Positions 5,658 to 45,400 of a DNA stretch of 64,000 nucleotides are shown piece after piece; within the stretch, counting starts at the first letter, position 1, and every line of letters begins with the position of its first letter. The notes under the pieces are model-generated. The model saw only the letters and a list, made by a program, of their open reading frames with translations, was not told the DNA's origin and made no database searches. The stretch comes from Candidatus Eiseniibacteriota bacterium (GTDB taxonomy: Bacteria > Eisenbacteria > RBG-16-71-46). The stretch spans positions 2,016,001 through 2,080,000 of the forward strand of contig OY970178.1 of the NCBI GenBank assembly GCA_963707915.1, given 5' to 3'. Position numbers and translations under genes: made by a program.

Positions 5658-6464
5658 ATGATCAACGGAATCAGTCCCGCGCTCGTCGGGCTCGACCCGA
5701 CCGCGTGGTCGTCCGCCCCGGCGCGCCGGGAGTCCTCCAGTGCCACGAGCGTCCTCGCGGCGCAGGCCTCGAGCGAGACCACGGCCGACATCGACATCGT
5801 CACCAAGGACGGCGACACGGTGACGATCTCCCTGCACTCCGACGTCGACGCGGGGTACGCCTACTATCGCCGCACCGGTGACGGGAGCGAACTGGAAGCC
5901 CGCGCGCTCGTCGCCTCGGTCAGCCAGGAGTTGCAGGTCACGGTGGAGGGGAGCCTCGACGAGCAGGAGCTGGCCGACATCGCGAAGCTTGTCAAGCAGA
6001 TCGGCCAGGCGATCCGCAGCTTCGTCAAGGGCAACACCACGGCGTCGGCCCAGCAGGCCCTCGAGGGGCCCGCGCTGGACTCGCTCTCGGGATTCTCGCT
6101 CGACATGACGCATTCGGACAGCCTCGCGCTGGTCGCGGCGGGCGCCACGACGACGACCGCTCCGGCGGGCGAGGTGACGTTCGAGAAGCCCGTGGCCGAG
6201 CCGCTGCCGACGCTCCCGATCGCGTACGAGGCGGACCCGCCGGACTCCCGGCGCCCTGGCGTCGAGGGCGTGCTCGAGGCGATGCAGAAGAGCGTGAAGG
6301 ACTCCGGCATCGACCTGGCCCGGGCCGGGAAGGTGCTGGTGAGGGCGCTCGAGCGGCTGATGAAGCGCATCGCCGAGGAACCGGCGGGCAGGTCCGCCCG
6401 GCCGGCGCTCGAGGAGATCGCGGCCCGCCTCCCCGAGCACCTGCGGCACGCGCACGACGAGTAG
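5658..6464 (+). CDS. Hypothetical protein, DUF5610-like (T.DGD.VTIS / G.LDEQEL..I motifs)
   Basis: Intact ORF with GC3-rich codons and a paralog at 3537. Family assignment is from motif memory only. Confidence 0.7.
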   Translation: MINGISPALVGLDPTAWSSAPARRESSSATSVLAAQASSETTADIDIVTKDGDTVTISLHSDVDAGYAYYRRTGDGSELEARALVASVSQELQVTVEGSLDEQELADIAKLVKQIGQAIRSFVKGNTTASAQQALEGPALDSLSGFSLDMTHSDSLALVAAGATTTTAPAGEVTFEKPVAEPLPTLPIAYEADPPDSRRPGVEGVLEAMQKSVKDSGIDLARAGKVLVRALERLMKRIAEEPAGRSARPALEEIAARLPEHLRHAHDE

Positions 6465-7027
6465 GGCGGATCCACGGCGGCGCCGGGCCCACCGCGGCCC
6501 CGGCGCCGTCGCGCACCGCCGGCCACGCCCCCGCGCAGTCTCCGCGGGGGCGCGGCGTTTGGGGAGCGATCCCGCCGCGTGACGCCCGGGGGTGCGCGCC
6601 ACGTGGGCCGCGCACGCCGCCCGGGCGCAGGGTCCCGCCTGCCGCCCCTTCCGGCGCACGCGCGCTCGACCCCGCTCGTCCTGGTCCCGACGCGGACGAG
6701 ACCGTCCCCGGGCGGCCCTTCCCCACCAGACTCAGGCGGCGAGGACGGCGCCGTGCTGGGCAGGTCATACGTTTGGACCATTGCCCCATACGGAGGAGTG
6801 AACGAAGATGAGACTCCACGCGTGATTTGCGCGGGCAGGGCGTAGCGAGCCGGGGCGCAGCGAGTCGAACCGCGCACCGGAGGCGCCAGCACCATCGACA
6901 GGCCGCGGAAACGCAGGCTGAATCAGGGTCACATCTCCGCCGCAGGGGAAGCGCAACGGCGGCAGGAGGTGTGGCCGCTTCTTGTGAGCCGGCGGCCCAT
7001 GGCCGGTCTCGCGTCAGGGGGAGCGCC

Positions 7028-7375
7028 ATGAGCCCGAACCCGCGAAGCACCGCGCGGAACCCGATGACCGCGCCGAAGCCGGCGTCCCGGGGACGCGTGT
7101 TCATCCGCGTGGAACGATGCAAGGGCTGCGCCTTCTGCGTCGAGTTCTGTCCGCAGAAGGTGCTGAAGCTCTCCGCCGACTTCAATCCCAAGGGCTTCCA
7201 CTACCCCGTCGTGGTCAAGGACGAGTGCATCAACTGCACCCTGTGCCTCTCCCTGTGCCCGGACTATGCGATCTACTCGAAACCCGTCGGCGCACGACCG
7301 GCCGCGCAATCGGCCCCCGGCTCGAACGGCGACGGCGTGAAGCGCGAGACGTCCCGCCAAGGAACCCCGTCATGA
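7028..7375 (+). CDS. korD: 2x[4Fe-4S] ferredoxin, delta subunit of 2-oxoacid:ferredoxin oxidoreductase
   Basis: CKGCAFCVEFCP and CINCTLCLSLCP; ATGA overlap with the alpha subunit. Alternative start at 7064. Confidence 0.88.
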   Translation: MSPNPRSTARNPMTAPKPASRGRVFIRVERCKGCAFCVEFCPQKVLKLSADFNPKGFHYPVVVKDECINCTLCLSLCPDYAIYSKPVGARPAAQSAPGSNGDGVKRETSRQGTPS

Positions 7376-8568
7376 GCGAGAACCCCGCGGTACTGACCGG
7401 CGAGCACTTCCTCCTGGGCGATCACGCCATCACCGAAGGGGCCCTGGCGGCCGGTTGCCGCTTCTTCGCCGGCTACCCGATCACGCCCTCGACCGAGACG
7501 GCGGAGTTGATGTCCCAGCGCATGCCCGAGGTGGGCGGCCTGTACCTGCAGATGGAGGACGAGATCGCCTCGATCGCCGCCATCCTGGGCGCGGCCTGGG
7601 GCGGGGCGAAGACCATGACCGCGACCTCCGGCCCCGGCTTCTCGCTGATGCTCGAGAACCTCGGGCTCGGCGTCATCACCGAGACCCCCACGGTGATCGT
7701 CAACGTCCAGCGCGGCGGGCCCTCCACCGGGCTGCCGACCCTCATGGCGCAGGGCGACATGATGCAGGCGCGCTGGGGCTCGCACGGCCACTACGAGATC
7801 ATCGCGGTCTCGCCCTGGAACGCGCAGGAGTGCTTCGAGCTCACGCTGCGCGCGTTCAACCTCGCCGAGCGCTACCGGACGCCGGTGCTGGTGCTGGCCG
7901 ACGCGGAGATCGGCCACCTGATCGAGAAGGTCGTGATCCCGCCGGCCGAGAGCCTCGAGATCTGGCACCGCAAGCGGCCGACCGCGAAGCCCGGCGAGTT
8001 CAAGACCTTCCAGCCCGACGACGACCTCATCCCGCCCATGGCGCCGATCGGCGAGGGCTACCGCGTCTTCGTGGACAGCCTCACCCACGACGAGCGCGGC
8101 TACCCGGTGATGACCGCCGAGTGCCAGGCGAAGCTGGTCCAGCGGCTGTGCGACAAGATCACCCACAACCGCTTCGCGATCTACGACAACGTCGAGCGGG
8201 ACGTGGAGGACGCCGAGGTCCTGGTGCTGTCCTACGGCATCTCGGCGCGCACCGCGATGCGCTCGATCGCGCTGGCGAAGGCGCGCGGCCTGAAGGTCGG
8301 CATGCTGCGGCTGCGGACCGTCTGGCCGTTCCCCGACGAGCGCGTGCGGGAGTTGTCCCGGAAGGTCAAGGGCATCGTGGTTCCCGAGCTCAACCTGGGC
8401 CAGATGGTGCGCGAAGTGGAGCGCTGCGCGATCGACACCTGCCAGGTCGCGCTGGTGCCGCATGCCGGCGGCAGCCTGCACGACCCCGAGGCGATCCTCG
8501 AGGCGATCGTCCAGGTGTCCGAGGGCCGGGCGCCGTCGCGGGCGGCCCTGGCGGTCCAGGGGAAGTAG
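7372..8568 (+). CDS. korA: 2-oxoacid:ferredoxin oxidoreductase alpha subunit
   Basis: FAGYPITPSTE, QMEDEIAS, TATSGPGFSLM, VQRGGPSTGLPT. Confidence 0.93.
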   Translation: MSENPAVLTGEHFLLGDHAITEGALAAGCRFFAGYPITPSTETAELMSQRMPEVGGLYLQMEDEIASIAAILGAAWGGAKTMTATSGPGFSLMLENLGLGVITETPTVIVNVQRGGPSTGLPTLMAQGDMMQARWGSHGHYEIIAVSPWNAQECFELTLRAFNLAERYRTPVLVLADAEIGHLIEKVVIPPAESLEIWHRKRPTAKPGEFKTFQPDDDLIPPMAPIGEGYRVFVDSLTHDERGYPVMTAECQAKLVQRLCDKITHNRFAIYDNVERDVEDAEVLVLSYGISARTAMRSIALAKARGLKVGMLRLRTVWPFPDERVRELSRKVKGIVVPELNLGQMVREVERCAIDTCQVALVPHAGGSLHDPEAILEAIVQVSEGRAPSRAALAVQGK

Positions 8569-8570
8569 CG

Positions 8571-10577
8571 ATGCCCCGGATCGGCGTCTTCGTCTGTCAC
8601 TGCGGCGAGAACATCGCCCGCACGGTGGACGTCCGCAAGGTGGCCGAGAGCGCCGGGAAGATCCCCGGCGTGGTCTTCTCCACCGACTACACCTACATGT
8701 GCTCCGCGCCCGGCCAGAAACTGGTGATGGACGCCATCCGCGAGCGGGGGCTCACCGGGGTCGTGGTCTCGGCCTGTTCCCCGCAGCTCCACGAGCCCAC
8801 GTTCCGCAACGCCGTGAAGCAGGCGGGCCTCAATCCCTTCATGTGCGAGATGGCGAACATCCGCGAGCAGTGCTCGTGGGTGCACCCGGACCGCGCCGAG
8901 GGCACGGCCAAGGCCTCCCGGATCATGGCCTCGGCGGTGCAGAAGGTGGCGCGCAGCCGCCCGCTGAACGCCTCGGAGGTGCCGGTCACCAAGCGCGCAC
9001 TGGTCATCGGCGGCGGCGTGGCCGGGATCCGCACGGCGCTCGACATCGCCAACGCCGGCCACGAGGTGGTGCTGGTCGAGAAGCAGCCGTCGATCGGCGG
9101 CAACATGGCGCGACTGAGCGAGACGTTCCCGACACTCGACTGCTCCCAGTGCATCCTGACCCCGCTCATGGTCGAGGTCGCGCGCCACCCGCGCATCGAG
9201 CTCATCACCCACGCCGAGGTCGAGGAGGTCTCGGGCTACGTCGGCAACTTCCGCGTCCGCATCCGCCGCCGGCCGTCGTTCGTGCGCGCGGACCAGTGCA
9301 CCGCCTGCGGCGACTGCGCCGCCGCGTGCCCGGTGTCCGTGCCGAACGAGTTCGACCAGGGCCTGGCGTGGCGCAAGGCGATCTACATCCCGTTCCCCCA
9401 GGCCGTGCCCTCGACCTACACGCTCGACGCCGCCAACTGCTCGAACCAGTCGCTGGTCTCGGCCAAGAGCGGCTACCGGGTGCTGGCGTGCGAGCGCTGC
9501 GCCAACGCCTGCAGCCGCAAGGCGATCGACTACGACATGAAGCCCGAGATCCTCGAGCGCGAGGTCGGCGCGATCGTCGCCGCCACCGGCTACAAGATGA
9601 TGGGCGGCGAGGGGCTCGCGGACTACGGCTACGGCCGCTACCCGGACGTGGTGGACAGCCTCGAGTTCGAGCGGTTGCTCTCCGCCTCGGGGCCGACCGG
9701 CGGCGAGGTGCTCCGGCCGTCCGACGGCAGGCCCGCGCGGGACGTGGTGTTCGTGCAGTGCGTGGGCTCGCGCGACCCCGAACACGGCTACCCCTACTGC
9801 TCCCGGGTCTGCTGCATGTACACGGCCAAGCACGCGCTGCTGTTCAAGCACAAGGTGCATGGCGGACGGGCCACGGTCTTCTACATCGACATCCGCGCCG
9901 CGGGCAAGGGCTACGAGGAGTTCGTGCAGCGCGCGATGCAGGAGGAGCGCGTCCTCTACGTGCGCGGGCGCGTCGCCCGGGTGGTCCAGCAGGACGGGCA
10001 GCTCGTGGTCTACGGCGCCGACACGCTCAGCGGCCAGCCGCTGCAGGTGCGCGCCGACCTCGTGGTGCTGGCCAGCGCGATGGTGCCCGCCCAGACCGAC
10101 GTGGCGGCCCGGCTGCGCGTGCCGACCGACGCCTACGGCTTCTTCCAGGAGGCCCACCCCAAGCTGCGCCCGGTCGAGACGCTGACCGCGGGGATCTTCA
10201 TCACCGGCGCGGCGCACGGGCCGAAGGACATCCCGGACACGGTGGCCCAGGCGTCGGCCGCCGCGTCGAAGGCGCTCGACCTGTTGTCCCGGACCCGGCT
10301 GCAGCGCGAACCGACCATCGCCCGCGTCGACGAGGCCGTGTGCATGGCCTGCTTCGAGTGCATCCGGGTGTGCCCCTACCAGGCGGTCGCGAGGCACGAG
10401 ATCCGCGCGCGCGACGGGCGGCTGCTGCGCGTGGTCGCACGCGTGAACCCGGCGATGTGCGAAGGCTGCGGCGCCTGCTCCGGCGCGTGCCGCTCGAGCG
10501 CCATGGACCTGCAGGGCTACACCGACAGCCAGATCTTCGCGCAGCTGACCGCGCTGATGGCGGGGGTGAACTCATGA
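8571..10577 (+). CDS. hdrA: Heterodisulfide reductase subunit A-like electron-bifurcating flavoprotein
   Basis: RIGVFVCHCGENI, NIREQCSWVH, FAD motif ALVIGGGVAG, TFPTLDCSQC, QCVGSRD...CSRVCCMYTAKHA, C-terminal ferredoxin. Confidence 0.95.
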   Translation: MPRIGVFVCHCGENIARTVDVRKVAESAGKIPGVVFSTDYTYMCSAPGQKLVMDAIRERGLTGVVVSACSPQLHEPTFRNAVKQAGLNPFMCEMANIREQCSWVHPDRAEGTAKASRIMASAVQKVARSRPLNASEVPVTKRALVIGGGVAGIRTALDIANAGHEVVLVEKQPSIGGNMARLSETFPTLDCSQCILTPLMVEVARHPRIELITHAEVEEVSGYVGNFRVRIRRRPSFVRADQCTACGDCAAACPVSVPNEFDQGLAWRKAIYIPFPQAVPSTYTLDAANCSNQSLVSAKSGYRVLACERCANACSRKAIDYDMKPEILEREVGAIVAATGYKMMGGEGLADYGYGRYPDVVDSLEFERLLSASGPTGGEVLRPSDGRPARDVVFVQCVGSRDPEHGYPYCSRVCCMYTAKHALLFKHKVHGGRATVFYIDIRAAGKGYEEFVQRAMQEERVLYVRGRVARVVQQDGQLVVYGADTLSGQPLQVRADLVVLASAMVPAQTDVAARLRVPTDAYGFFQEAHPKLRPVETLTAGIFITGAAHGPKDIPDTVAQASAAASKALDLLSRTRLQREPTIARVDEAVCMACFECIRVCPYQAVARHEIRARDGRLLRVVARVNPAMCEGCGACSGACRSSAMDLQGYTDSQIFAQLTALMAGVNS

Positions 10578-11977
10578 GCGAGCCGACCCTGCAGGCCGTG
10601 ACCGGCACCGCGGCACCGGCCTGGAAGCCGCAGATCACCGCCATCGTCTGCAACTGGTGCACCTACGCCGGCGCCGACATGGCGGGGACCACGCGGCGCG
10701 AGTACCCGGCGAGCGTGCGCCTGCTGCGCGTGCCGTGCAGCGGGCGGGTGAACCCGCTCTTCATCCTCAAGTCGTTCGAGCAGGGCGCCGACGGCGTGCT
10801 GGTCTCGGGCTGCCACCCCGGCGACTGCCACTACGTGCAGGGGAACTTCTTCGCGCGGCGCCGCTTCGCGGCCTTCCGCTCGCTGCTGCACTTCCTCGGC
10901 GTCGACCCGCGGCGGGTGCACTTCTCCTGGATCTCGGCCTCGGAGGGCATCAAGTGGTCGCGGGTGGTCGGCGACGTGACCCGCGCGGTGACCGAGGCCG
11001 GCCCGCTCGCCGACTGGGGCAAGGTCCGCCCGCAGGCGCCGGTGACGCTGCCCGAGCCGGCCGACCCCAGGCCGCGGCCCGCCGACGCCGAACTGGCGGC
11101 GGTCACCGGCCACGCGCGCGAGCTGGCGGCGTCGCTGCTGCGCGAGGGCAAGGTCGCGTTCGTGCTGGGCTGGACGCCCGGCCCGATCCCCGGCCAGACC
11201 GTCCCCGCCTTCATCCAGCGGCCCGAGGATGCGGCGACCCTGGTGTTCGGCACGGACAGCCACGCCGACCTGGCCGCCTACCTGGCCGGCCCGCGCAAGG
11301 TGGCCGGCAAGGTCGCCGTGCTGGTGAAGGCCTGTGACGCGCGGGCCGCGACGACGCTGCTGGCCGAGGGCCAGCTGGTGCGCGAGGACGTGGTCCTGGT
11401 CGGCGTGTCCTGCCCGGGCATGTGGCGTGACGACCGGCTCGCCTACCGCTGCCACTCCTGCGACGGCGAGGTCGGCGCCCTCTGCGACTTCACCGTGAGC
11501 GCCGCGGGCGTGCAGGCCGGGGCGGTCCGGGGCGACGCGCAGCGGGCCACCGGGCCCGATCCGCGCGACGTCCAGAACACGTACCTCGAGTCCCTGCCCC
11601 CGGCCCAGCGCTGGGCCTTCTGGCAGGAACAGTTCGCCGACTGCGTGCGCTGCTACGCCTGCCGCGCGGTCTGCCCGATGTGCTACTGCGGGACGTGCAT
11701 CTCCGAGCAGCACCGCCCCCAGTGGGTGCCCACCTCGATCGACGGACGAGCCAACACGGCCTGGAACCTGATCCGCGCCTACCACCTGAGCGGCCGCTGC
11801 GCGGGCTGCGACGAGTGCGAGCGCGTCTGCCCGGCCAACATCCGCCTCGACCTGATCAACCGGCGACTGGCGCTGGAGCTCGAGCAGCGCTTCGACTATC
11901 GCGCGGGGACCGACCCGGAGGGGGCGCCGCCGCTGGCAACCTTCCGGCCGGACGACCCGCAGGAGTTCATCTACTGA
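10574..11977 (+). CDS. flxCD: MvhD/FlxD [2Fe-2S] domain fused to FlxC-like 4Fe-4S protein
   Basis: CNWCTYAGAD, RVPCSGRV, SGCHPGDCHY (MvhD), then CVRCYACRAVCPMCYC and HLSGRCAGCDECERVCP; ATGA overlap with hdrA. Confidence 0.85.
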   Translation: MSEPTLQAVTGTAAPAWKPQITAIVCNWCTYAGADMAGTTRREYPASVRLLRVPCSGRVNPLFILKSFEQGADGVLVSGCHPGDCHYVQGNFFARRRFAAFRSLLHFLGVDPRRVHFSWISASEGIKWSRVVGDVTRAVTEAGPLADWGKVRPQAPVTLPEPADPRPRPADAELAAVTGHARELAASLLREGKVAFVLGWTPGPIPGQTVPAFIQRPEDAATLVFGTDSHADLAAYLAGPRKVAGKVAVLVKACDARAATTLLAEGQLVREDVVLVGVSCPGMWRDDRLAYRCHSCDGEVGALCDFTVSAAGVQAGAVRGDAQRATGPDPRDVQNTYLESLPPAQRWAFWQEQFADCVRCYACRAVCPMCYCGTCISEQHRPQWVPTSIDGRANTAWNLIRAYHLSGRCAGCDECERVCPANIRLDLINRRLALELEQRFDYRAGTDPEGAPPLATFRPDDPQEFIY

Positions 11978-13047
11978 TGAGCACGCCGTCGGAAGGACCG
12001 ACCCATCGCCTCGGGCAGGACCAGCTGGCGTCGTGGCTGGACGCGCTGATCGCCGAGCGCAGGCGCGTCTACGCGCCGGTGCTGCGGCGCGGGCTGCGGG
12101 TGCTGCGCGTGGTGGACCGGGCGCAGGACGCGGACCTCGCGCCCGGCCGGACCCGCTGGTCGCCCAAGGAGGCCCTGTTCCCGCGCACCGAGACGTTGTT
12201 CTCCTACGAGAACGGCAACGGGACGCCGGTGCTCACCGACCCGCCGGCGGACGACGTCGCGCAGGTCCTGTTCGGCGTGCAGCCCTGCGACGCCGCGGGG
12301 CTGGTGCGGCTCGACGCCATCCTGCTCCAGGACCCGTTCTACGCGCGGCGCCGCGAGCTCACCACGGTGGTCGCCATCGCCTGCTCCGAGGCCGCTCCCG
12401 AGTGCTTCTGCACCGCGGTCGGCGGGTCGCCCGCGGGCGAGGAGGGCGTGGACGTCCTGCTGGCGCCGCACGAGGGGGGCTGGCTGGTCCGCGCGCTGAG
12501 CCCGAAGGGCGAGGCCCTGCTCGCCCCGCGGCGGGGCGACTGGCCGTCGGCCGCCGCGGGCGCGTGGGCGTCGGCCCTCCAGCAGGCGGGCCGGGTGGCC
12601 GCGGGCATGGACCGCCGCGAGATCCCGGCGGAGTGGGCCGCGACGCTCGAGCAGAGCTTCGACGACCCGCGCTGGGAGGCGCTCGCCCGCCGCTGCGTCG
12701 GCTGCAGCATCTGCGCCTACGTCTGCCCGTCGTGCTCCTGCTTCGACGTGGCCGACGAGGGCAGCGACGCCTGCGGCACGCGCTGCCGGACCTGGGACAG
12801 CTGCTCGTTCCGAATGTTCACGCTGCACGGCTCGGGGCACAACCCCCGGCCCGCCCAGGCCGAGCGGTCGCGCCAGCGCGTGCTGCACAAGTTCGCGTTC
12901 TACCCGCTGCAGCACGGCGGCCGGGCGATGTGCGTCGGCTGCGGCCGCTGCATCCGGTCCTGTCCCGTGGGGATGGACATCCACGCGGAGGTCGTCGAGG
13001 TGATGTCCGGGAGACCGGAGAAGGAGTCGAAGGATGTCGAACGCTGA
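11977..13047 (+). CDS. flxB: FlxB-like (AsrA/sulfhydrogenase beta-like) 4Fe-4S protein
   Basis: SPKEALFP, GVQPCD, CVGCSICAYVCPSCSCF, RTWDSC, CVGCGRCIRSCP; TGATG coupling. Confidence 0.85.
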   Translation: MSTPSEGPTHRLGQDQLASWLDALIAERRRVYAPVLRRGLRVLRVVDRAQDADLAPGRTRWSPKEALFPRTETLFSYENGNGTPVLTDPPADDVAQVLFGVQPCDAAGLVRLDAILLQDPFYARRRELTTVVAIACSEAAPECFCTAVGGSPAGEEGVDVLLAPHEGGWLVRALSPKGEALLAPRRGDWPSAAAGAWASALQQAGRVAAGMDRREIPAEWAATLEQSFDDPRWEALARRCVGCSICAYVCPSCSCFDVADEGSDACGTRCRTWDSCSFRMFTLHGSGHNPRPAQAERSRQRVLHKFAFYPLQHGGRAMCVGCGRCIRSCPVGMDIHAEVVEVMSGRPEKESKDVER

Positions 13048-13921
13048 GACCGTGGCCGGACCGGCGCGCGCCGCCGGCGCACAGGCCGGGCCGCTCGAGA
13101 GCCCGCTCAAGCCGCGCCTGATGCGCATCGTCGAAGCCTGGGACGAGACGCCGGACGTGCGCAGCCTGCGGCTCCAGCCGGTCGACGACGGCCCGCCGGT
13201 GCGCTGGCTGCCCGGGCAGTTCGGCGAGTTCTCGGTGTTCGGAGCGGGCGAGGCGGTCTTCACCATGGCGAACTCACCGTCGCGCGGGGACTTCGTCGAA
13301 TGCGGCTTCCGCGCGCTGGGCAAGGTGACCTGGGCGCTGCGCGACCTGGCGGTGGGCCAGGTGATCGGCTATCGCGGCCCCTACGGGAACTCCTTCCCCG
13401 TCGACTCGTGGCGCGGCAAGGACCTGGTCTTCGTCGGCGGCGGCATCGGCACGGTCGCGCTGCGCGCGCCGCTGCAGTGGGTGCTCGACCACCGCGACGA
13501 CTTCGGCGAGGTCGTGGTGCTGAACGGCGCCCGCAGCGTCGCCGACCTCTGCTACCAGCAGGAGATGCCGGCCTGGGCGGAGGTGCCGGGGGTCCGCGTG
13601 GTACGGACGGTCGACCCGGGCGGCGAGACCCCGGAGTGGGACGGCGAGGTCGGCCTGCTGCCGACGGTGTTCGAGCGGCTGGGCCTGGCGCCGGGCCGCC
13701 GCGTCGTCGTCACCTGCGGCCCGCCCATCATGCTGCACTACCTGTTCCAGTCGCTCGAGAAGCTGCAATTCCCGCCGGACGACGTGGTGACCACGCTCGA
13801 GAACAAGATGAAGTGCGGTCTCGGGCTGTGCGGCCGCTGCAACGTCGGGCGCCTGTTCGTGTGCGTGGACGGTCCCGTGTTCACCTGGGCCCGCCTCAAG
13901 ACCCTGCCCAGGGACTACTAG
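13034..13921 (+). CDS. flxA: FlxA-like FAD/NAD(P)H-binding [2Fe-2S] subunit
   Basis: PGQF, RGPYGN, GGGIG, CGPPIM, MKCGLGLCGRC...VCVDGPVF. Confidence 0.88.
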   Translation: MSNAETVAGPARAAGAQAGPLESPLKPRLMRIVEAWDETPDVRSLRLQPVDDGPPVRWLPGQFGEFSVFGAGEAVFTMANSPSRGDFVECGFRALGKVTWALRDLAVGQVIGYRGPYGNSFPVDSWRGKDLVFVGGGIGTVALRAPLQWVLDHRDDFGEVVVLNGARSVADLCYQQEMPAWAEVPGVRVVRTVDPGGETPEWDGEVGLLPTVFERLGLAPGRRVVVTCGPPIMLHYLFQSLEKLQFPPDDVVTTLENKMKCGLGLCGRCNVGRLFVCVDGPVFTWARLKTLPRDY

Positions 13922-13933
13922 GAGAGGAGAGTC

Positions 13934-14833
13934 ATGCGCTTGGCCCGCGAGTTGGAGGAGGAGCTCGGCTCGGAGCACTGGACCGAGGAGGTGCTCGAGG
14001 AGGCGCTCTCGCACCCCACCGAGGAGTTCCTGCGGAAGGACCGGCTCCCCCACATCTGGTGCCCGGGGTGCGGCATCGGGGTGACGACCAACGCGTTCGT
14101 GCAGGCGCTGACCGAGGCCGGCGTGGACCGCGACAAGCTGGTCGTGGTCTCGGGCATCGGCTGCACCGGCCGCGTGTCGGGCTACATGGACTGCGACACC
14201 TTCCACACCACGCACGGCCGCGCCATCCCCTACGCGCTCGGCCTGCACATGACCAACCCGGACCTCAAGATCGTGGTGGTGAGCGGGGACGGCGACCTCC
14301 TGTCGATCGGCGGCAACCACCTGATCCACGCCGCGCGCCGCAACCCCAACATCACCGTCATCTGCGTGAACAACTTCAACTACGGCATGACCGGCGGCCA
14401 GTGCGGGCCCACCAGCCAGCACGACGCCCGCACCGTCACCACGCCGTTCGGCAACATGGAGTACCCGTTCAACGTGCCCCTGCTGATCGGCTCGGCCGGC
14501 GCGACCTACCTGGCCCGCTGGACGGTGCTCGACCTGGGCCGGGTGCGCCGCTCGATGGTGGAGGCGCTCCAGCACAAGGGGTTCGCCTTCGTCGAGGTCG
14601 TCTCCCCGTGCCCGATCTACTACGTCCGCTTCAACAAGCGCGGCGAGGCCGTGGACGAGCTGCGCTACTACCGGGACCACTCCGAGGTGAAGGACTTCGC
14701 TCCGCTCGAGGAGTGCGACCTGACCCTCGGCGGGAAGATCGTGGTCGGCAAGTTCATCGACAAGCAGCGGCCCACCCTGTACGACCTGCTGATGCGTGAC
14801 CAGATCCAGAAGGCCCAGGCCCGGAAGAAATAG
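13934..14833 (+). CDS. korB: 2-oxoacid:ferredoxin oxidoreductase beta (TPP-binding) subunit
   Basis: WCPGCG, SGIGCTGR, HTTHGRA, GDGD...NNFNYGMTGGQ, SPCP. Confidence 0.93.
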   Translation: MRLARELEEELGSEHWTEEVLEEALSHPTEEFLRKDRLPHIWCPGCGIGVTTNAFVQALTEAGVDRDKLVVVSGIGCTGRVSGYMDCDTFHTTHGRAIPYALGLHMTNPDLKIVVVSGDGDLLSIGGNHLIHAARRNPNITVICVNNFNYGMTGGQCGPTSQHDARTVTTPFGNMEYPFNVPLLIGSAGATYLARWTVLDLGRVRRSMVEALQHKGFAFVEVVSPCPIYYVRFNKRGEAVDELRYYRDHSEVKDFAPLEECDLTLGGKIVVGKFIDKQRPTLYDLLMRDQIQKAQARKK

Positions 14834-14842
14834 GAGTCGGCG

Positions 14843-15412
14843 ATGAGCGCGAAGAAGAACCACATCGAGGTGCGGCTGAGCGGCTTCGGCGGCCAGGGCC
14901 TGGTGCTCGCGGGGATCGTGCTCGGGCGCGCGGCGGCCGTCCACGAGCGCCGCAACGCGGTCATGGCCCAGAGCTACGGGCCCGAGTCGCGGGGCGGCGC
15001 GTCCTGCGCCGAGGTCATCATCGACGACGGGGACATCGACTACCCGCACGTCATCGCTCCCGACGTCGTGCTGGTGCTCTCGCAGGAGGCCTACGCCAGG
15101 TACGGGAAGACCCGCGCGCCCGGCGTGCTGATGATCGCCGAGAAGGACATCGTCCAGCTCGACCCCGCCGCCGAGGCGGGTCGCCGGTCGATGCGCGTGC
15201 CGTTCACCGCGCTCGCCGAGAAAGTCGGGCGCCGCATCGTGCTGAACATGGTCGCGCTCGGCTTCCTGTGCCGCGCGACCGGCGTGGTCAGCCGCGAGGC
15301 CCTGCGGGAGGCGATCAAGGCGTCGGTGCCGCGCGGCACGGACGAGTTGAACCTGCGCGCCTTCGACGCCGGGCACGAGTACACCGAAGGCCTGGTGGAG
15401 GCCGCGCGATGA
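14843..15412 (+). CDS. korC: 2-oxoacid:ferredoxin oxidoreductase gamma subunit
   Basis: RLSGFGGQG, QSYGPESRGG, NMVALG, NLRAFDAG. Confidence 0.92.
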   Translation: MSAKKNHIEVRLSGFGGQGLVLAGIVLGRAAAVHERRNAVMAQSYGPESRGGASCAEVIIDDGDIDYPHVIAPDVVLVLSQEAYARYGKTRAPGVLMIAEKDIVQLDPAAEAGRRSMRVPFTALAEKVGRRIVLNMVALGFLCRATGVVSREALREAIKASVPRGTDELNLRAFDAGHEYTEGLVEAAR

Positions 15413-16785
15413 CGCAGCCGGCCCTCGCGCCCGGCCACGAGGCCACCGACCACGAGGCGGTGGACCGGCCGATCCGCGAGATCGAGCGCAAGAGCGAGCA
15501 GAACCTCTGGGCCTGCTACCAGTGCGGCCGCTGCACCGCGGACTGCCCGTTCTCGCTGACGCCGAGCCTGGCGGTGCGGCTCCTGCAACTCGGGCAGCTG
15601 GAGGCCGCGCGCAGCCTGGCCACGACCTGGGACTGCGCGAGCTGCTACTCCTGCCAGACCGGGTGCCCGAAGGGCGTCAGCCCGGCGCGGGTGATGAAGG
15701 CACTGCGCGCGCTCGACGGCGGGCAGATGCCCGCGGTCTTCACGCAGCCTGCCGAGCTGCTGGGCCGCAACGGCGACCCGCTCCCGCTCTCCGCGCGCCG
15801 GCCCCGCTGGACGCCGCGCGCCGGCCTCGCCGCGTGGACCCGGCGGATGCGCGCCCGCGCGCTGGCCTCGATGCCCCTGGCGTTCCCGCTGATGAGCGCG
15901 GTCGCGCCGCTCAGCAACCGGATGATGAAGCTGCCCGGCGCGCGGCAACTCGCCCACCTGGTCCTGGGCGTGCACCGCGACCGCAAGCTCCCCACCTTCG
16001 CCGCCCGCTCGTTCCCGGCCTGGTTCGCGACCCACCCGCCGCTCGGCGACGGCCGTCGCGGCGCCGTGATCCTGTTCCACGACGAGTTCATGGACTACAA
16101 CTACCCCCAGACCGGCATCGCGGTGACCGAGATCCTCGAGCGCGCCGGCTACCGGGTCGAGCTGTTCCGCGGCGCCTGCTGCGGCCGGCCGATGATCTCG
16201 AAGGGACTCGAGGAGGGCGCCTCCGCCTGCGCCGTGAAGAACGTCCCCATCCTGCACGAGGCGGCCAGCCGCGGCGCGTACATCGTGGGCTGCGAGCCGT
16301 CCTGCCTGCTCACACTCCGCGACGAGTACCTGCACCTCGTGCCGCAGGGCCTCGAGGCGCAGGCCCGGGCGGTCGCCCGCCAGGCGTTCCTGATCGACGA
16401 GTTCCTGGTCATGCTCCACGCGAAGGGCGAGCTCGAGCTCACCTTCCGCGCACCCGACACGCTGCGGCCCGTGCTGTTCCACGGGCACTGCCACCAGAAG
16501 GCCTTCGCGGACGCGTCGAAGAGCGTCGCACTGCTGGAGCTCGCCGGCTACGACGTGGAGTTCGTCAACGCGGCGTGCTGCGGCATGGCGGGCCTGCACG
16601 GCTTCGAGAAGCGGCATTTCGAGGCCTCGCGCGCTGCCTGCGAGCGCTCGGTGCTCCCGGCGGTACGTTCGCGGCCCGACGCCGACCTCGTCATCATGGG
16701 TGTGTCCTGCCGCCAGCAGATGGAGCAGTTCACCGAGCGCCCGGTCCGCCACCTCGTCGAGGCCGTGCGCGACGCCCTCGCCTGA
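15409..16785 (+). CDS. Fe-S oxidoreductase: HdrC-like N-terminus plus two CCG domains (HdrD/GlpC-like)
   Basis: CYQCGRCTADCP, WDCASCYSCQTGCP, then GACCG...CEPSC and HGHCHQ...ACCGMAG...GVSC; ATGA overlap with korC. Confidence 0.85.
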   Translation: MTQPALAPGHEATDHEAVDRPIREIERKSEQNLWACYQCGRCTADCPFSLTPSLAVRLLQLGQLEAARSLATTWDCASCYSCQTGCPKGVSPARVMKALRALDGGQMPAVFTQPAELLGRNGDPLPLSARRPRWTPRAGLAAWTRRMRARALASMPLAFPLMSAVAPLSNRMMKLPGARQLAHLVLGVHRDRKLPTFAARSFPAWFATHPPLGDGRRGAVILFHDEFMDYNYPQTGIAVTEILERAGYRVELFRGACCGRPMISKGLEEGASACAVKNVPILHEAASRGAYIVGCEPSCLLTLRDEYLHLVPQGLEAQARAVARQAFLIDEFLVMLHAKGELELTFRAPDTLRPVLFHGHCHQKAFADASKSVALLELAGYDVEFVNAACCGMAGLHGFEKRHFEASRAACERSVLPAVRSRPDADLVIMGVSCRQQMEQFTERPVRHLVEAVRDALA

Positions 16786-16801
16786 TCCGCCGCGGCGACC
16801 G

Positions 16802-17254
16802 TCAGCCGGACGGGCGCCGCGGCGCGTGGATCGCGCGGTCGAGGGCCTGCAGGAAGCGCGAACGGTCCCGCGGGTCGAACGGCGGCGGACCGCCCGCCTC
16901 GATCCCGGCGCCGCGCATCTCGGCGAGCAGGTTCCGCGTCGCCAGCGCATCGCCGATGTTCGCCTCGGTGAAGGGCCGGCCGGTCGTGCCCAGCACGCCG
17001 GCGCCGGCGGCGAGGCAGCGGGCGGCGAGCGGGATGTCCGCCGTGACCACCAGGTCGCCGGGCGCGACCCGCGCCGCGATCCAGTCGTCCGCCGCGTCGA
17101 ACCCCCTGTCCACGACCTCGAGCACGACGTCCGGACCGCCCGGGACCCGCATCCAGGAGCCCGCCACGAAGGTCACCCCGAGGCCGTAGCGCTGCGCGAC
17201 CCGGACGACCTCCGGCTTCACCGGGCAGGCGTCGGCGTCAACGTAGATGCGCAC
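16802..17254 (-). CDS. yaiI: YaiI/YqxD (UPF0178) family protein
   Basis: IYVDADACPVK, DAADDWI, DLVVTADIPLA, GGPPPF..RDR.RF. Confidence 0.9.
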   Translation of the reverse strand: MRIYVDADACPVKPEVVRVAQRYGLGVTFVAGSWMRVPGGPDVVLEVVDRGFDAADDWIAARVAPGDLVVTADIPLAARCLAAGAGVLGTTGRPFTEANIGDALATRNLLAEMRGAGIEAGGPPPFDPRDRSRFLQALDRAIHAPRRPSG

Positions 17255-17318
17255 CGCCCTGCCCTCCCGGGTCCGGGATCCGGCCGCCGCCCGGCCCCGC
17301 GACGCTCCCCCGCATCCC

Positions 17319-18242
17319 TCAGGCCGGCGCGTCGAGCGACCGAGCCGCCTCGCGCAGCACCTCGGCCGAGCGCAGCAGGTCCGCCCGCTCCGCGTCCGTC
17401 ATCCCGGGCTCGAGCACGTGCTCGGCCCCGGTGGGGCTCACCACCGTCGGCAGCGACAGCGCCACGTCGCTGAGCCCCAGCGCGCCCTCCTGGACCCGCG
17501 CCACCGTCAGCACGCGCCGGGCACCCCGCAGCATCCACTTGATCAGCGTCGCGGTGACCAGCCCGATGGCGTGGGTGGTCGCCCCCTTGCGCCGGATGAC
17601 CTCGAGGCCGGCGCCGCGGACCTCCTCGGTCACCCGCGCCTCGCGCGCGGCGTCCCAGCCGGGCCAATCGCGCAGCGGCAGGCCGCCCACCCGCACGCCC
17701 GACCACAGCACCACCTCGGTCGCGCCGTGCTCGCCGATGACCTGGCCGTGGATCGAGCGCGGGTCGAGGTCGAGCTCGCGCCCCAGCACCTGCCGCAGCC
17801 GCGCGGAGTCGAGCATCGTGCCGGTGCCGATCACGCGCGCGGGCGGGAAGCCGGTGGCCCGCGTCATCACCAGCGTCATGACGTCCACCGGGTTCGTCAC
17901 CACGACCACGATGCCGCGCCCGCCGCGCAACTGCCGGCCGATGTCGGTCACGATGCCCGCGTTGGTCGCCAGCAACTGGAGCCGCGACTGCCCCGGGGCG
18001 CGGCCGACGCCCGCCGTGACCACCACCGCGTCGCAATCGAGCATGTCCGCGATGGTGCCCGCGCGCACCCGCGCCGTGGGATAGAACGCCGAGCCCTGGA
18101 GGAGGTCCATGGCCTCGCCCTCGGCGACGTCCGGTCGCGCGTCGTGCAGGACCAGCTCGCCCGCCGCGCCGAAGTGGAGCAGCGACAGGGCGACGCTCAC
18201 GCCGACGCCGCCGGTACCGATGATGCCGACCTTCACGCGCAT
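17319..18242 (-). CDS. ldh: L-lactate dehydrogenase (LDH/MDH family)
   Basis: GIIGTGGVG, VVVTAG, SRLQL, VTNPVD, GTGTMLDSARLR, GEHG. Confidence 0.85.
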   Translation of the reverse strand: MRVKVGIIGTGGVGVSVALSLLHFGAAGELVLHDARPDVAEGEAMDLLQGSAFYPTARVRAGTIADMLDCDAVVVTAGVGRAPGQSRLQLLATNAGIVTDIGRQLRGGRGIVVVVTNPVDVMTLVMTRATGFPPARVIGTGTMLDSARLRQVLGRELDLDPRSIHGQVIGEHGATEVVLWSGVRVGGLPLRDWPGWDAAREARVTEEVRGAGLEVIRRKGATTHAIGLVTATLIKWMLRGARRVLTVARVQEGALGLSDVALSLPTVVSPTGAEHVLEPGMTDAERADLLRSAEVLREAARSLDAPA

Positions 18243-18441
18243 GGCTGGCTCCCCATCCGGTCGAGGTGTGCGGGCACGTCCGGCCGGGAACATAGCCCAG
18301 AACCCCGGTCGCCGCCGATCCGCCGCTCCCGGGCCCGCCCGCCGGCGGCCGGCGCGCCGCGCGGCCCCAAGCCCGACGGCCACCCGGGTGGGTGGCCGTC
18401 GGCAGGTCGGGACCGGTGCCCCGGCTCGGGGGCGGTCCGCG

Positions 18442-21400
18442 TCACCGGAGCAGCAGCATCTTCCGCTGCTGGACGACGCTCCCGACCTGCAGCCGGCAGA
18501 AGTAGACGCCGCTGGCGATCCCCTTCACGTCGAGGTCGACGCGGTAGCGCCCCGCGGCCTGCGGCTGGTCGACGAGCTTGCGCACCTCGCGGCCCTGCAG
18601 GTCGTACATCCGTAGCGAGACGTGCTGCGCCACCGGGATCGCGTAGGCGATGCTGGTGGAGTTGCGGAACGGGTTCGGCGCGTTCTGCGCGAGCATCACG
18701 GCGCGCGGGACGCCCAGGGTGACGTCGGTCACCCGCACGGAGTCGCTGCCGCCGAACTGGTAGTAGCGGGCGGTGAACTCCTGCAGGTACTGGTTGGCGA
18801 TGTCGGGGTCGTGGAGGATGAAGGTGTTCTCGTTGTTCGAGTTCTCCGCCGAGGCCGACCAGTTGTGCGAGCCGGTCAGGGTCACGCCGTCCCAGGTCGG
18901 GTTGTCCGCGTCCATCAGGGCGTACTTGTGGTGGAGCAGGCCCCCGCCGGTGTTCAGGCGCACGTCCACGCCCGACGCGACCAGGCCGGCGTATTCCGAG
19001 CCGGAGTCGGTGCCGTTGTCCAGGTCCCCGCGGACCTTGAGCCCGGCCGTCTTCCGCGCGATCAGGGCGGCGGCGATGTCCGACCGGGTCAGCGTGAGCA
19101 CCTCGAAGCCGACCGAGTGCTGGGCCGCGTTGATCGCCGAGATGATCTGCCAGTTCGCACCGTCGGAGGGGCTGAAGTAGCAGGACGCCGCGTGACCTCC
19201 GATGACGAACTTGTGCGGCGTGTCGTCCAGCTTGCGCGCCCCGAAGCGCGAGTTCGCGGCGTTCGGCACGTCGGTGTCGCTCCCCCACATCTCGTCGAAC
19301 TCGAGCGTGTAGACGACGGCCAGGGCCTGGTCCTGCACTTCGATCGCGTTCTGGTAGTCGCTGTTCGTGCCGGGGTCGGTGAGGTTCCACGACCCGGTCC
19401 ACACCCAGGTGCTCTCGGGCGCGCCGCCGCGCGAGTCGACCACGAAGAACTTGTCGTGCATGAGCCCGGCGCCGTAGTTGATCGGGTCGAACTTGTCGTC
19501 GATCAGCGGGATCCCGCTGCCGGCGACCGTGTTGAACGCGAGCGTGTTGCGGTTGTCGGCCTCGCAGATGACCCGCACCTTCACGCCCCGGTTCCTGGCG
19601 CTGACCAGCGCATCGGCGATGGTGCCGCCCACCGTGCCGCTCATGCTGTAGACCGCGCAGTCGATCGAGCGCCGGGCGTTGTCGATGCGCGTCTTGAGCC
19701 GCGCGACCAGGTCCTGGTTGCCGTTGGCCGGGTGCAGCCAGGCCACGGCCGTGTCCACGCTCTTGTTGAAGTAGGCATTGATCTCGCCCGTGGTCTGCGC
19801 GGGCGAGGCGGTGCAGAAGACGCGGGTGGTCGAGAAGTTGGCGCCGTTCACGTCGGCCGATCCGACGCTGTAGTGGTAGACGGTCGCCGGCGCAAGCCCG
19901 GGAAGCTCCACGTCGTGCGCGGTCACCGGGTCCGCGACGACCACGCTGTCGCCGAGCGCCGCGGTGAGCCCGTAGCGGACGATGCTGCTCGCGGCCACGT
20001 CCGTGGTCCAGTGCAGCTGCACCGACGAGGGCAGGATGTGGTCCTCGTAGGGGGTGGTGAGGATGATCGGGCCCGGGTGCCCGATGATGTCGTCGGGCGA
20101 GCGCGGCGAGATCTCGTAGTCGGCGGTGAAGGGCGGCGGAACCGGGTTGGTGCCGGCCTTGTACTGCTTGAGGATGCCGATCACGTCGAACACGCTCGGC
20201 GTCGGCGGATAGCTGAGCGGGATGTAGATCATCGTCGTGCCGGAGGCGTCGGTGATCATCGAGGTCGTCGAGTTGTAGCTCGCGCCGTTGATGCGGATCA
20301 GGCGGCCCTCGTTCGGCTCGGTGCCGTCCGGGTGGAACGTGGCGTTGACGTCGGCGCAGGTGACGACCAGCGGCTCCGGCGCCGGCCGGCCGGTGGCGAT
20401 CACCTGGAGCGAGGAGAAGTCCACCGTGATCTCCGTGAGGCCGCGGAACTGCGCGATCGACCCGCTGACGAGGACGCTGTCGCCGGGCGCGAGCGTGACC
20501 GGGGGCGCGCCGTAGGCGAAGCAGTCGATGCCACCCGTGCCGTCCTGCACGTAGAAGTCGGTGTTGGTGCCGCTCCAGTTCACGGTGACGGTGCCCGAGA
20601 CGGTCACCGAGGAGCCGGCCGCGTACGGCGCCGCCGCCACACCCGTCGTGGGGTCGTTGACGTGGACGCTCACGATCGGGACCAGCGTCACCACGCGGAC
20701 CTTCGGCTGCTTGACGACCTGGGTCAGCGTCCCGGACGCGACGGCGCTCCGCAGCGTGAAGGTCGTCGTACCGGTGGCGACCGGTGCGGTGAGGTTCGAG
20801 AGGGTCACCAGGCCGCTGTCCGCGGGGGTGACCGCGGCGCCGGCGATGAACAGCGTGTCGGCGACGAGCGAGGGCGTGGCGGAGGTGAAGGCCGTCCCCG
20901 TCAGGGCGACGTCCGTCAGCGAGCGCGACCAGGTCCAGTCCGACGGGATCAGGATCGCCAGGTCCGTCAGCGTGTAGGCCGAGTCCTGGGCGACGGAGAA
21001 CGCCAGCGAGGGCACGGCGTGCTCGGTGAGGACCGTGGCGGGCGCGGCGCTGCCGCGGCCGGTCCCGTTGCCTCCGGAGGCGAAGGCAGGCTCCGGCGGG
21101 TTGCCGCTGTTCTGCGGGTTGCGGCCGTTGGTCTGCGTGACGAAGTCGTTGCCGTTGACGTTGGTGTCCTGCCCGTTCCCGGCGAACTCCTCGGAGCCGC
21201 CCGCCGCGAGCGTCGCCGCGGTGGAGGTCACGGACGCCTTGCGCTCGACGCTGTTGCCATTCGCGCTCGTGCCGTGATTCGGCGCGGCCGCGCCGCCCTC
21301 GGGATTGACCGCGCTGCCCCAGCCGACCTTGTCCACCTCGACGGCCGAGGCGTCGATGATGCGCTCGTGGCCGTTGTCCGCCATGCCCGTGCCGGAGGTC

Positions 21401-21753
21401 CAGAGCCCCGAGGAGTAGTCCGCCGTGACCGAGCCCACGTACGACGTGTTGACGATCAGGTAGAACCCGTGCGGCTGGATGAGCGTGCCCGCGGGCAGGA
21501 TGGCGCGGTCGCTCCACGTGCTGCCGTTGGTCGCGGAGGAGTACTGGAGCTTCCAGCCGCCGATGTCGATCGCGGTGGCGGTCGGGTTGTAGAGCTCGAC
21601 GAACTCGTCGGTGGCGACCGCGGGCCCGCGCGTGGCGAACTCGCTGATGACGACGTGCGTGGCGGCCGCCTTGGCCGGGGGCACCGCGAGCAGGAGGAGC
21701 GCCAGGATCGCGAGCAGGACGGGAGCGCTGGAACGGCGTGGCAGGAGACGCAT
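18442..21753 (-). CDS. Secreted multidomain phospholipase D-family protein (lamin-tail, OB-like, Fn3, 2x HKD, C-terminal sorting domain)
   Basis: Signal peptide; VVISEF...DEFVELYNPT; HKD motifs MHDKFFVVD/TGSWN and LHHKYALMD/TGSHNWS; C-terminus QNAPNPF...YDLQGR...SGVYFCRL...RKMLLLR. Confidence 0.85.
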   Translation of the reverse strand: MRLLPRRSSAPVLLAILALLLLAVPPAKAAATHVVISEFATRGPAVATDEFVELYNPTATAIDIGGWKLQYSSATNGSTWSDRAILPAGTLIQPHGFYLIVNTSYVGSVTADYSSGLWTSGTGMADNGHERIIDASAVEVDKVGWGSAVNPEGGAAAPNHGTSANGNSVERKASVTSTAATLAAGGSEEFAGNGQDTNVNGNDFVTQTNGRNPQNSGNPPEPAFASGGNGTGRGSAAPATVLTEHAVPSLAFSVAQDSAYTLTDLAILIPSDWTWSRSLTDVALTGTAFTSATPSLVADTLFIAGAAVTPADSGLVTLSNLTAPVATGTTTFTLRSAVASGTLTQVVKQPKVRVVTLVPIVSVHVNDPTTGVAAAPYAAGSSVTVSGTVTVNWSGTNTDFYVQDGTGGIDCFAYGAPPVTLAPGDSVLVSGSIAQFRGLTEITVDFSSLQVIATGRPAPEPLVVTCADVNATFHPDGTEPNEGRLIRINGASYNSTTSMITDASGTTMIYIPLSYPPTPSVFDVIGILKQYKAGTNPVPPPFTADYEISPRSPDDIIGHPGPIILTTPYEDHILPSSVQLHWTTDVAASSIVRYGLTAALGDSVVVADPVTAHDVELPGLAPATVYHYSVGSADVNGANFSTTRVFCTASPAQTTGEINAYFNKSVDTAVAWLHPANGNQDLVARLKTRIDNARRSIDCAVYSMSGTVGGTIADALVSARNRGVKVRVICEADNRNTLAFNTVAGSGIPLIDDKFDPINYGAGLMHDKFFVVDSRGGAPESTWVWTGSWNLTDPGTNSDYQNAIEVQDQALAVVYTLEFDEMWGSDTDVPNAANSRFGARKLDDTPHKFVIGGHAASCYFSPSDGANWQIISAINAAQHSVGFEVLTLTRSDIAAALIARKTAGLKVRGDLDNGTDSGSEYAGLVASGVDVRLNTGGGLLHHKYALMDADNPTWDGVTLTGSHNWSASAENSNNENTFILHDPDIANQYLQEFTARYYQFGGSDSVRVTDVTLGVPRAVMLAQNAPNPFRNSTSIAYAIPVAQHVSLRMYDLQGREVRKLVDQPQAAGRYRVDLDVKGIASGVYFCRLQVGSVVQQRKMLLLR

Positions 21754-43966: not shown

Positions 43967-43979
43967 GGTCGTCCGGGCC

Positions 43980-44999: not shown

Positions 45000-45082
45000 G
45001 GGGCTACGGACTCCTCGGGTTTGCGATGGAGGTCTCCCCGGCGGCCCCGGGCGGGAAGGTCTGCTGCCTGCCTTCCCGGTTA

Positions 45083-45392: not shown

Positions 45393-45400
45393 GGACCTCC

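Follow-up and report, generated by a model that had tools for sequence, protein, structure and literature searches.

Reductive carboxylation by 2-oxoacid:ferredoxin oxidoreductases (Kor) demands electrons of much greater reducing power than NAD(P)H provides, and the cheap supply of such electrons is a central question for the reverse tricarboxylic acid (TCA) cycle and for anaerobic carbon flow. In tubeworm symbionts and Thioflavicoccus mobilis, korABCD are interspersed in a conserved manner with hdrABC/flxABCD and tfrAB, and the report by Rubin-Blum et al. contains both the hypothesis of a direct complex and a printed model in which NADH is bifurcated to fumarate and Kor (mSphere 2019, PMC6315080). 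Later work indicates that kor and hdr-flx are co-expressed in Endoriftia, intergenic regions included, with KorABCD placed between HdrA and HdrBC (Nat Microbiol 2024, PMC11636981), and that a Kor-Hdr cluster occurs in Bipolaricaulia (2023 preprint, bioRxiv 10.1101/2023.11.26.568696). By analogy, we regard as the closest characterised working analogue the methanogen Hdr super-assemblies, in which low-potential electrons are delivered via polyferredoxins straight to the CO2-reducing formylmethanofuran dehydrogenase (Nature 2026, PMC13518236). Here we describe a locus in which kor genes enclose an hdrA-flx block, found in a 64,000-nucleotide stretch of the genome of a Candidatus Eiseniibacteriota bacterium (contig OY970178.1, positions 2,016,001 to 2,080,000; hereafter the window). 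On balance, we favour the view that its nine genes constitute one operon and that their products work as one redox unit, probably as a physical complex.

The nine genes lie on the + strand between positions 7028 and 16785 of the window, in the order korD-korA-hdrA-(mvhD/flxC fusion)-flxB-flxA-korB-korC-(HdrC+CCG fusion) (Table 1). Because the G+C content of the window is 72%, many of its open frames are spurious; across the operon Pfam and NCBIfam each single out one frame per gene, and together they bear out the order korD-korA-hdrA-flx-korB-korC-HdrC/CCG that an earlier note had read from the letters of this DNA alone. The start codons of the nine genes are inferred choices, unproven, and the junction lengths depend on them: with these starts the successive junctions are an overlap of 4, a gap of 2, overlaps of 4, 1 and 14, gaps of 12 and 9, and an overlap of 4 nucleotides (nt), in keeping with the note's description of genes that overlap or are separated by gaps of 12 nt or less. 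The hdrA-flx block that holds korA and korB apart, put by the note at about 5.3 kb, measures 5351 nt, and the contiguous paralogous kor operon that it had placed further along the window is likewise real. No product of the nine genes has a hydrophobic stretch of transmembrane grade. A scan of positions 6300-17400 on both strands for promoter and terminator consensus sequences gave no match, a result that is uninformative at this base composition.

Table 1 Genes of the split operon and related features of the window (aa, amino acids; TPP, thiamine pyrophosphate)
Feature	Position	Strand	Domain and model matches, remarks
korD, delta subunit, 115 aa, two [4Fe-4S] motifs	7028..7375	+	Pfam Fer4_7/Fer4; start inferred, other ATG at 7064
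korA, alpha subunit, 398 aa	7372..8568	+	POR_N + PFOR_II; NF006412
hdrA, FAD/Fe-S flavoprotein (bifurcating heterodisulfide reductase type), full-length, 668 aa	8571..10577	+	
MvhD/FlxD (FlpD domain, N-terminal)-FlxC-like Fe-S fusion, 467 aa	10574..11977	+	FlpD E 1.1e-46, Fer4_8
flxB-like Fe-S subunit, 356 aa	11977..13047	+	Fer4_22
flxA-like NAD(P)H/FAD subunit with [2Fe-2S] domain, 295 aa	13034..13921	+	NAD_binding_1 + DHODB_Fe-S_bind
korB, TPP-binding beta subunit, 299 aa	13934..14833	+	TPP_enzyme_C E 3.3e-31
korC, gamma subunit, 189 aa	14843..15412	+	POR E 4.1e-30
HdrD/GlpC-like fusion, 458 aa: HdrC-like 2x[4Fe-4S] N-terminus and two CCG domains	15409..16785	+	CCG + Fer4_8
korCBAD paralogue, contiguous	28520-31488	-	KorA 55% identical
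Rnf-type complex (Rnf-Nqr membrane subunits, FMN_bind subunit, RnfC), then ApbE	39178-45086	-	

Compared with the Kor-Hdr-Flx-Tfr clusters of Ca. Endoriftia, the Escarpia symbiont, Thioflavicoccus mobilis and Bipolaricaulia, the window operon has in common a four-subunit Kor set among hdrA, mvhD and flx genes, all of the same strand, as well as the proposal that flavin-based bifurcation feeds the oxidoreductase directly; relatives with the order hdrCB-korDABC-hdrA-mvhD-flxCBA-tfrBA are the nearest outgroups of both its HdrA and its KorA. It differs in that hdrA-flx splits korDA from korBC, that a GlpC-like fusion replaces HdrB and HdrC, that MvhD is fused to FlxC, that neither tfrAB nor fumarase lies near it (acl was not found either, with a silent control), and that the hosts of the split order are labelled Eisenbacteria, Acidobacteriota, Actinomycetota and Planctomycetota. 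New in what we call the split subtype are the split kor genes, the MvhD-FlxC and HdrC-CCG fusions, and the lack of a fumarate reductase branch. The broader claim of the earlier note, that the architecture was undescribed, does not hold, since kor interspersed with hdr/flx and the direct-complex hypothesis were in print in 2019 (PMC6315080) and were followed up in 2023-2024; the value of the locus as a discovery claim is lower for that reason. In the full-text literature searched, with subscription journals outside it, we found neither a biochemical study of a Kor-Hdr complex nor a description of the split GlpC-like subtype, and passages of PMC7382037, PMC12542636 and bioRxiv 10.1101/2024.09.26.615249 held nothing beyond the 2019, 2023 and 2024 papers.

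Like the KorDABC/OorDABC 2-oxoglutarate:ferredoxin oxidoreductases (PDB 8ys5, 1yd7), the Kor set of the window operon has four subunits and the cofactor motifs; unlike theirs, its kor genes are non-contiguous, and the presumed electron partner is HdrA-Flx rather than free ferredoxin. Homologues of FlxA, FlxB, FlxC, FlxD (MvhD) and HdrA are all encoded in the operon, as in the FlxABCD-HdrABC NADH dehydrogenase/heterodisulfide reductase of Desulfovibrio vulgaris that Ramos et al. reportedly described in 2015; the window operon differs from that system in its gene order, in the embedded Kor, in the GlpC-like fusion that stands in for HdrBC, and in that DsrC was not found in the genome. With the methanogen Hdr-(Vhu/Fdh)-Fwd/Fmd assemblies (PDB 7bkb, 8rvu; PMC13518236), the likeness would lie in a low-potential branch of HdrA that leads via ferredoxin-type subunits into a CO2-fixing enzyme, which we propose here from the genes, in exchangeable input modules, and in an HdrA that aligns over its full length. 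The partner in the window would instead be a TPP-dependent 2-oxoacid synthase, with no polyferredoxin and with NAD(P)H input via Flx, and coenzyme M/coenzyme B heterodisulfide chemistry is not expected in these bacteria.

Gene order was compared in the best 80 of 549 relatives from an HdrA search with one genome per species, in which the cluster genes were then placed by tblastn, and in the best 80 loci of a reciprocal search with KorA against metagenome contigs (loci are given L numbers). One or more kor genes lay within 10 kb of hdrA in 71 of the 80 genome loci, and both korA and korB did so in 64; the nine loci without kor comprise five on short or cut contigs (L033, L035, L036, L038, L070), three archaeal loci (L045, L069, L074) and one from an unclassified bacterium (L026), the HdrA of which groups with that of the Holophagae loci L022 and L024. 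The split order is complete in L001, L002, L019, L020 and L023 and cut in L064, in genomes labelled Ca. Eisenbacteria, unclassified bacterium, Acidobacteriota, Gaiellaceae, Acidimicrobiales and Phycisphaeraceae, and the same nine-gene order recurs in the metagenome loci L090, L103 and L126. Among metagenome contigs with KorA of at least 69% identity that continue past korA, hdrA directly follows korA in 10 of 10, and korD-korA-hdrA is present in all of them (L102 stops at korA, and in L145 korA itself is truncated); of the remaining best 80 metagenome loci, 19 have hdrA elsewhere in the locus and 6 have only tfr or hdrBC. The synteny search that the earlier note had suggested thus places hdrA-flx between korA and korB in several phyla, and the split order is not an accident of one assembly.

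A neutral rearrangement or an assembly error as the source of the interleaving, with two functionally unrelated modules, we consider scarcely credible. Contigs from three of four sediment runs (X2, X3, X4) do join a korA-like to a korB-like sequence (8423->14029, 8425->14039), skipping about 5.6 kb at 88% likeness, and there are therefore contiguous kor operons in related DNA; joints at less than 95% likeness often stem from other organisms, and the probable source of these contigs is other organisms in which kor is contiguous. Other contigs from the sediment runs span korD-korA, flxB-flxA, flxA-korB and korB-korC, and argue against such an error; what the four runs contributed was mostly short contigs of relatives and adds little. 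An erroneous or neutral origin is already contradicted by the shared order, which occurs in independent assemblies of several phyla and in the 10 metagenome contigs, and by the KorA clade described below.

As judged from gene content, the wider family is modular, with a core of HdrA-MvhD, an input by Flx (NAD(P)H) or Mvh (H2), Kor and, in most cases, HdrBC and a soluble FrdAB-like fumarate reductase; gene identities in representative loci were confirmed by Pfam. The order hdrC-hdrB-korDABC-hdrA-mvhD-flxC-flxB-flxA-tfrB-tfrA marks a flx class of 34 loci, mostly with Aminicenantes labels (L025 is an exception in this class, with an hdrC-like match after flxA and no upstream hdrCB or tfrBA), and an hdrCB-korDABC-hdrA-type order without flx in 7. 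Ten loci belong to the class mvhG-mvhA-hdrC-hdrB-hdrA-(mvhD)-tfrB-tfrA-korDABC-fumarase, 7 of them with the full order including mvhGA, and 4 have the Bipolaricaulota form, in which the Mvh hydrogenase lies inside the cluster. Flx is present in 42, Mvh hydrogenase in 12 and soluble fumarate reductase genes in 57 of the 80 genome loci. Fumarase often adjoins the clusters that bear fumarate reductase, and the presence of both beside HdrA-Kor fits a reductive TCA segment. The [NiFe] Mvh replaces Flx as the input in L031, L032, L037, L039, L043, L059 and L060, and also in L044, L052, L055 and L067; the Mvh clusters of Aminicenantes read mvhGA-hdrCB-hdrA-tfrBA-korDABC-fumarase, and the Bipolaricaulota form is rearranged.

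The split subtype is linked to the fumarate-reductase-bearing clusters by one metagenome locus, L093 (9546-20088), in which the first eight genes of the split order are followed by hdrC, hdrB and a tfrB-like gene, with no fused CCG gene, and at which point the contig stops. Beside eight split-type loci we found no conserved accessory gene (thiol carrier, thioredoxin, succinyl-CoA synthetase), and the flanks were unrelated; those of the window operon are common only to its same-genus relative. There, as in the window, a malate/lactate dehydrogenase gene (17319-18383, - strand) and a DUF188 gene (16802-17254, - strand) converge on the operon end, an arrangement kept only in this relative (L001).

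For KorA and HdrA, trees were inferred with FastTree, and their only support values are SH-like. The phylogenetic comparison with stand-alone copies that the earlier note had envisaged was carried out for KorA, and it places the split arrangement in one clade of 18 rows (17 split loci and L102; support 99), apart from the stand-alone paralogue. In the HdrA tree the window copy falls within a 12-row clade (support 100) together with L021, L025 and three Holophagae-type loci. The Kor genes of L021 and L025 are contiguous, and their KorA groups with the stand-alone paralogue of the host genome (window 28520-31488); since their HdrA belongs to the split clade and their KorA does not, Kor and HdrA-Flx have been united on more than one occasion. 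The two trees are broadly congruent inside the split clade, as would be predicted for a cluster that moves as a whole. In the host phylum, 27 of 101 sampled genomes, the host's own included, have an HdrA at an E value of 1e-50 or better; outside its own genome an orthologue of the window HdrA occurs only in a same-genus genome (93%), and the next best copies, at 58-59% identity, lie in ordinary hdrCB-hdrA-flx clusters without kor (L081-L083). This patchy distribution, together with the unrelated flanks of the other split loci, suggests that the cluster may have spread horizontally, although the composition of the window shows no sign of a recent arrival. Taken as evidence from gene order and trees, the linkage strongly backs what would be a functional union of Kor with HdrA-Flx.

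Residues 2-662 of HdrA align with residues 4-649 of a solved bifurcating HdrA (PDB 5odc_A, 688 bits); all cluster cysteines are kept, with 24 cysteines invariant among 25 homologues, and the best NCBIfam model, HdrA2, scores under its cut-off. The inserted ferredoxin domain of HdrA bears an insert of 9-10 residues that marks the HdrD-type subclade only; as a candidate for a general Kor-docking element it was dropped, being absent from some Kor-linked HdrAs. The MvhD-FlxC fusion matches VhuD and the HdrA2 C-terminus in NCBIfam, and mvhD and flxC are two separate genes in L005 and L043. FlxB resembles sulfhydrogenase beta/AsrA, and FlxA sulfhydrogenase gamma/AsrB, both under the NCBIfam cut-offs, a likeness that is usual for Flx proteins; FlxA is presumed to be the electron input of the operon.

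At the opposite end of the presumed electron path, separate HdrC and HdrB are not present in the operon, and one fused protein takes their place. Its best NCBIfam model is GlpC (189 bits, cut-off 278), with GlcF, LdhH and YdiJ also among its matches. In a profile search against PDB its first 130 residues match HdrC, and HdrB was not reached at E values up to 1. Sixteen of its cysteines are invariant in 10 homologues; the CCG half has 4 + 4, whereas HdrB has two complete CCG motifs of five cysteines each. It is encoded by 9 complete split loci and is presumed to be the high-potential exit.

The Kor set is complete, the alpha, beta, gamma and delta subunits all having the expected domains and cofactor motifs in Pfam and NCBIfam. 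KorA passes the generic model '2-oxoacid:acceptor oxidoreductase subunit alpha' (NF006412; 547.9 bits, cut-off 411) and has 1yd7_A as its top PDB match (E 3.6e-119). KorD has two CxxCxxCxxxC motifs, the cysteines of which (C31, 34, 37, 41, 67, 70, 73 and 77) are invariant in an alignment of 25 sequences, and the KorB translation shows a GDG...NN stretch and Cys residues. The best NCBIfam models of KorD and KorB are the delta and beta models for 2-oxoglutarate:ferredoxin oxidoreductase (OGOR_delta and OGOR beta), and the OGOR-specific models all score under their cut-offs, alpha with 361 bits (cut-off 579), beta with 255 bits (cut-off 364) and delta with 65 bits (cut-off 125), as does NF006323 for KorC with 213.7 bits (cut-off 235).

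From these parts we infer a scheme in which the physical complex, the substrate, the direction of electron flow and the acceptor are all conjectural. FlxA would take electrons from NAD(P)H, and FlxB, FlxC and the fused MvhD domain would relay them to HdrA, at whose FAD the pair would be split. The low-potential electron would pass from the ferredoxin domains of HdrA through KorD to the TPP of KorABC, which is bound by KorB, bypassing free ferredoxin; Kor would thereby probably stand in for free ferredoxin as the recipient of the low-potential electrons of HdrA bifurcation. The high-potential electron would leave through the GlpC-like HdrD protein to a putative acceptor. In the forward direction NAD(P)H would power the reductive carboxylation of an acyl-CoA, with succinyl-CoA to 2-oxoglutarate as the likeliest case, and in the reverse (confurcating) direction electrons of a 2-oxoacid and of a high-potential donor would be merged onto NAD(P)+. 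The relevant potentials are about -320 mV for NAD+/NADH, +30 mV for fumarate/succinate and -500 mV for succinyl-CoA + CO2/2-oxoglutarate; given these, a split of NADH between fumarate and Kor is exergonic overall and would drive two reductive TCA steps.

The earlier note had KorD wire the TPP enzyme directly to HdrA within a supercomplex, a claim of which the functional part is upheld by conserved and re-formed synteny and the direct wiring only weakly. In particular, complex prediction for HdrA with KorD gave a median score of 0.37 (runs 0.25, 0.39 and 0.37) compared with 0.00 for the best of three controls; at least 70% of contacts were common to the runs, and the pLDDT of the partner was at least 64. 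When this score was benchmarked, 116 of 157 solved complexes attained the mark, compared with 2 of 215 mismatched pairs; those that did so with a score of 0.60 or less were only 18 of the 157 and both of the passing mismatches. The prediction thus lends weak support to a KorD-HdrA contact, and a physical Kor-HdrA supercomplex is a plausible hypothesis.

Several observations weigh against a wired, bifurcating unit. The weakness of the prediction is itself one of them, and ferredoxin-like partners may score by way of their likeness to solved Hdr(-polyferredoxin) complexes. A docking signature sought in KorD by comparing HdrA-linked clusters with stand-alone KorD did not emerge, there being no distinguishing feature, and the Rnf complex encoded in the window could allow free ferredoxin to couple Kor and NADH without contact or Hdr. 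All three points support an alternative in which Kor and Flx-HdrA-HdrD are coupled functionally through free ferredoxin and remain physically separate, the shared operon serving co-regulation and matched amounts. This alternative, the main rival of the wired unit, which stays alive because the contact score is weak and KorD is featureless, we regard as possible, if doubtful. It gains further from the canonical kor-less Flx-Hdr clusters of the same phylum noted above (L081-L083) and from how common stand-alone KorDABC of similar sequence is, with 45 of the 80 metagenome KorA loci lacking any hdr or tfr gene (many of these on short contigs). It does not sit easily with the splitting of korDA from korBC by 5.35 kb, which is kept across the KorA clade and which co-regulation alone explains poorly, with the operon's having no separate ferredoxin gene by domain search and in its translations, or with the repeated, independent union of Kor and HdrA. 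A look-up of RNA runs for the operon stretch listed none that carries it, a further point against the proposed unit.

The remaining points against the proposed unit concern its acceptor and its substrate. The split subtype has no adjacent fumarate reductase. In the host genome no relative of tfrA exceeded 37% identity, the best matches (33-37%) lying elsewhere and none in the window, and DsrC (PF04358) was not found in that genome (94.8% complete, one contig) in a search for which the E. coli control was positive; ATP-citrate lyase (PF16114) was not found there either, in a search that was silent too in all 14 control genomes. Because no fumarate reductase, tfrA or DsrC was found and the exit is GlpC-like, half of the bifurcation scheme is without a known acceptor. 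The disulfide acceptor assumed by the earlier note consequently loses its footing, the CCG half being GlpC-like, HdrB not having been reached and DsrC not having been found in the genome; CCG proteins of the GlpC type occur in the annotations of quinone-linked dehydrogenases, so that a quinone and a small disulfide are both possible. As for the substrate, 2-oxoglutarate is unproven from sequence models, the generic 2-oxoacid alpha model being the only one passed.

The want of an identified high-potential acceptor in the split subtype, after the tfrA and DsrC searches, is also what speaks for a second alternative, namely that the operon encodes a non-bifurcating NAD(P)+-dependent 2-oxoacid oxidoreductase in which Flx and HdrA are a wire from the TPP enzyme to NAD(P)+. 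Precedents for such an enzyme are the NADH-dependent phenylglyoxylate dehydrogenase PadEFGHI and the 2-oxoglutarate:NADP+ oxidoreductase KorABC of Azoarcus, and KorA, KorB and KorC weakly match Pad subunits in NCBIfam, far under the cut-offs. We hold this alternative to be improbable: a full HdrA with all its clusters and a conserved CCG protein would be costly for a plain wire, and the third branch in the sister clusters is clearly a fumarate reductase.

A more far-reaching form of the bifurcating proposal, which we advance tentatively and consider rather unlikely in its entirety, is that the nine subunits of the split subtype make up a soluble machine, complete in itself, for NAD(P)H-driven CO2 fixation into 2-oxoglutarate. 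It would meet the energy cost by passing its second electron through the GlpC-like CCG protein to the quinone pool or a small molecule, as a FixABCX-like bifurcation attached directly to a carboxylase, and would have spread by gene transfer. The hosts in this reading are soil and sediment bacteria labelled Eisenbacteria, Acidobacteriota, Actinomycetota and Planctomycetota, some of which have heme-copper oxidase genes and so may not be strict anaerobes. If a Kor-wired HdrA is borne out, it would be the second bifurcation coupled directly to CO2 fixation, after methanogen Hdr-Fmd/Fwd, and the first with a TPP enzyme. The pairing of Kor with HdrA is widespread (71 of the 80 best related genome loci) and modular, with Flx or Mvh as the input and Tfr or a GlpC-like protein as the exit. 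This modularity offers several natural variants to purify, and the split subtype, whose nine genes are tightly packed and include no membrane parts, is a compact option for expression in a heterologous host.

The host genome has two Kor-like operons besides the split one, and it has citrate synthase, an SdhA-type flavoprotein and succinyl-CoA synthetase away from the operon. A third 2-oxoacid:ferredoxin oxidoreductase-like set lies at window positions 45359-48713 (+ strand), with a fused gamma (POR) and delta (2x[4Fe-4S]) subunit and a TPP-binding subunit further on. A second Hdr cluster (C1:2138875-2150057, - strand), about 59 kb past the window, includes mvhA, mvhG, hdrB and hdrC; its HdrA has one in-frame TGA, and because such a codon recurs in many HdrA copies of the phylum it is probably a selenocysteine-containing HdrA. 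Elsewhere in the host genome, a match to COX1 (heme-copper oxidase subunit I; C1:1399300-1400573, - strand) falls into five fragments whose frames alternate and may be a pseudogene or the product of small indel assembly errors. Within the window, positions 18442-21753 (- strand) encode a protein of 1103 aa with Lamin-tail, purple-acid-phosphatase-N and two PLD-like domains and a type IX secretion sorting tail.

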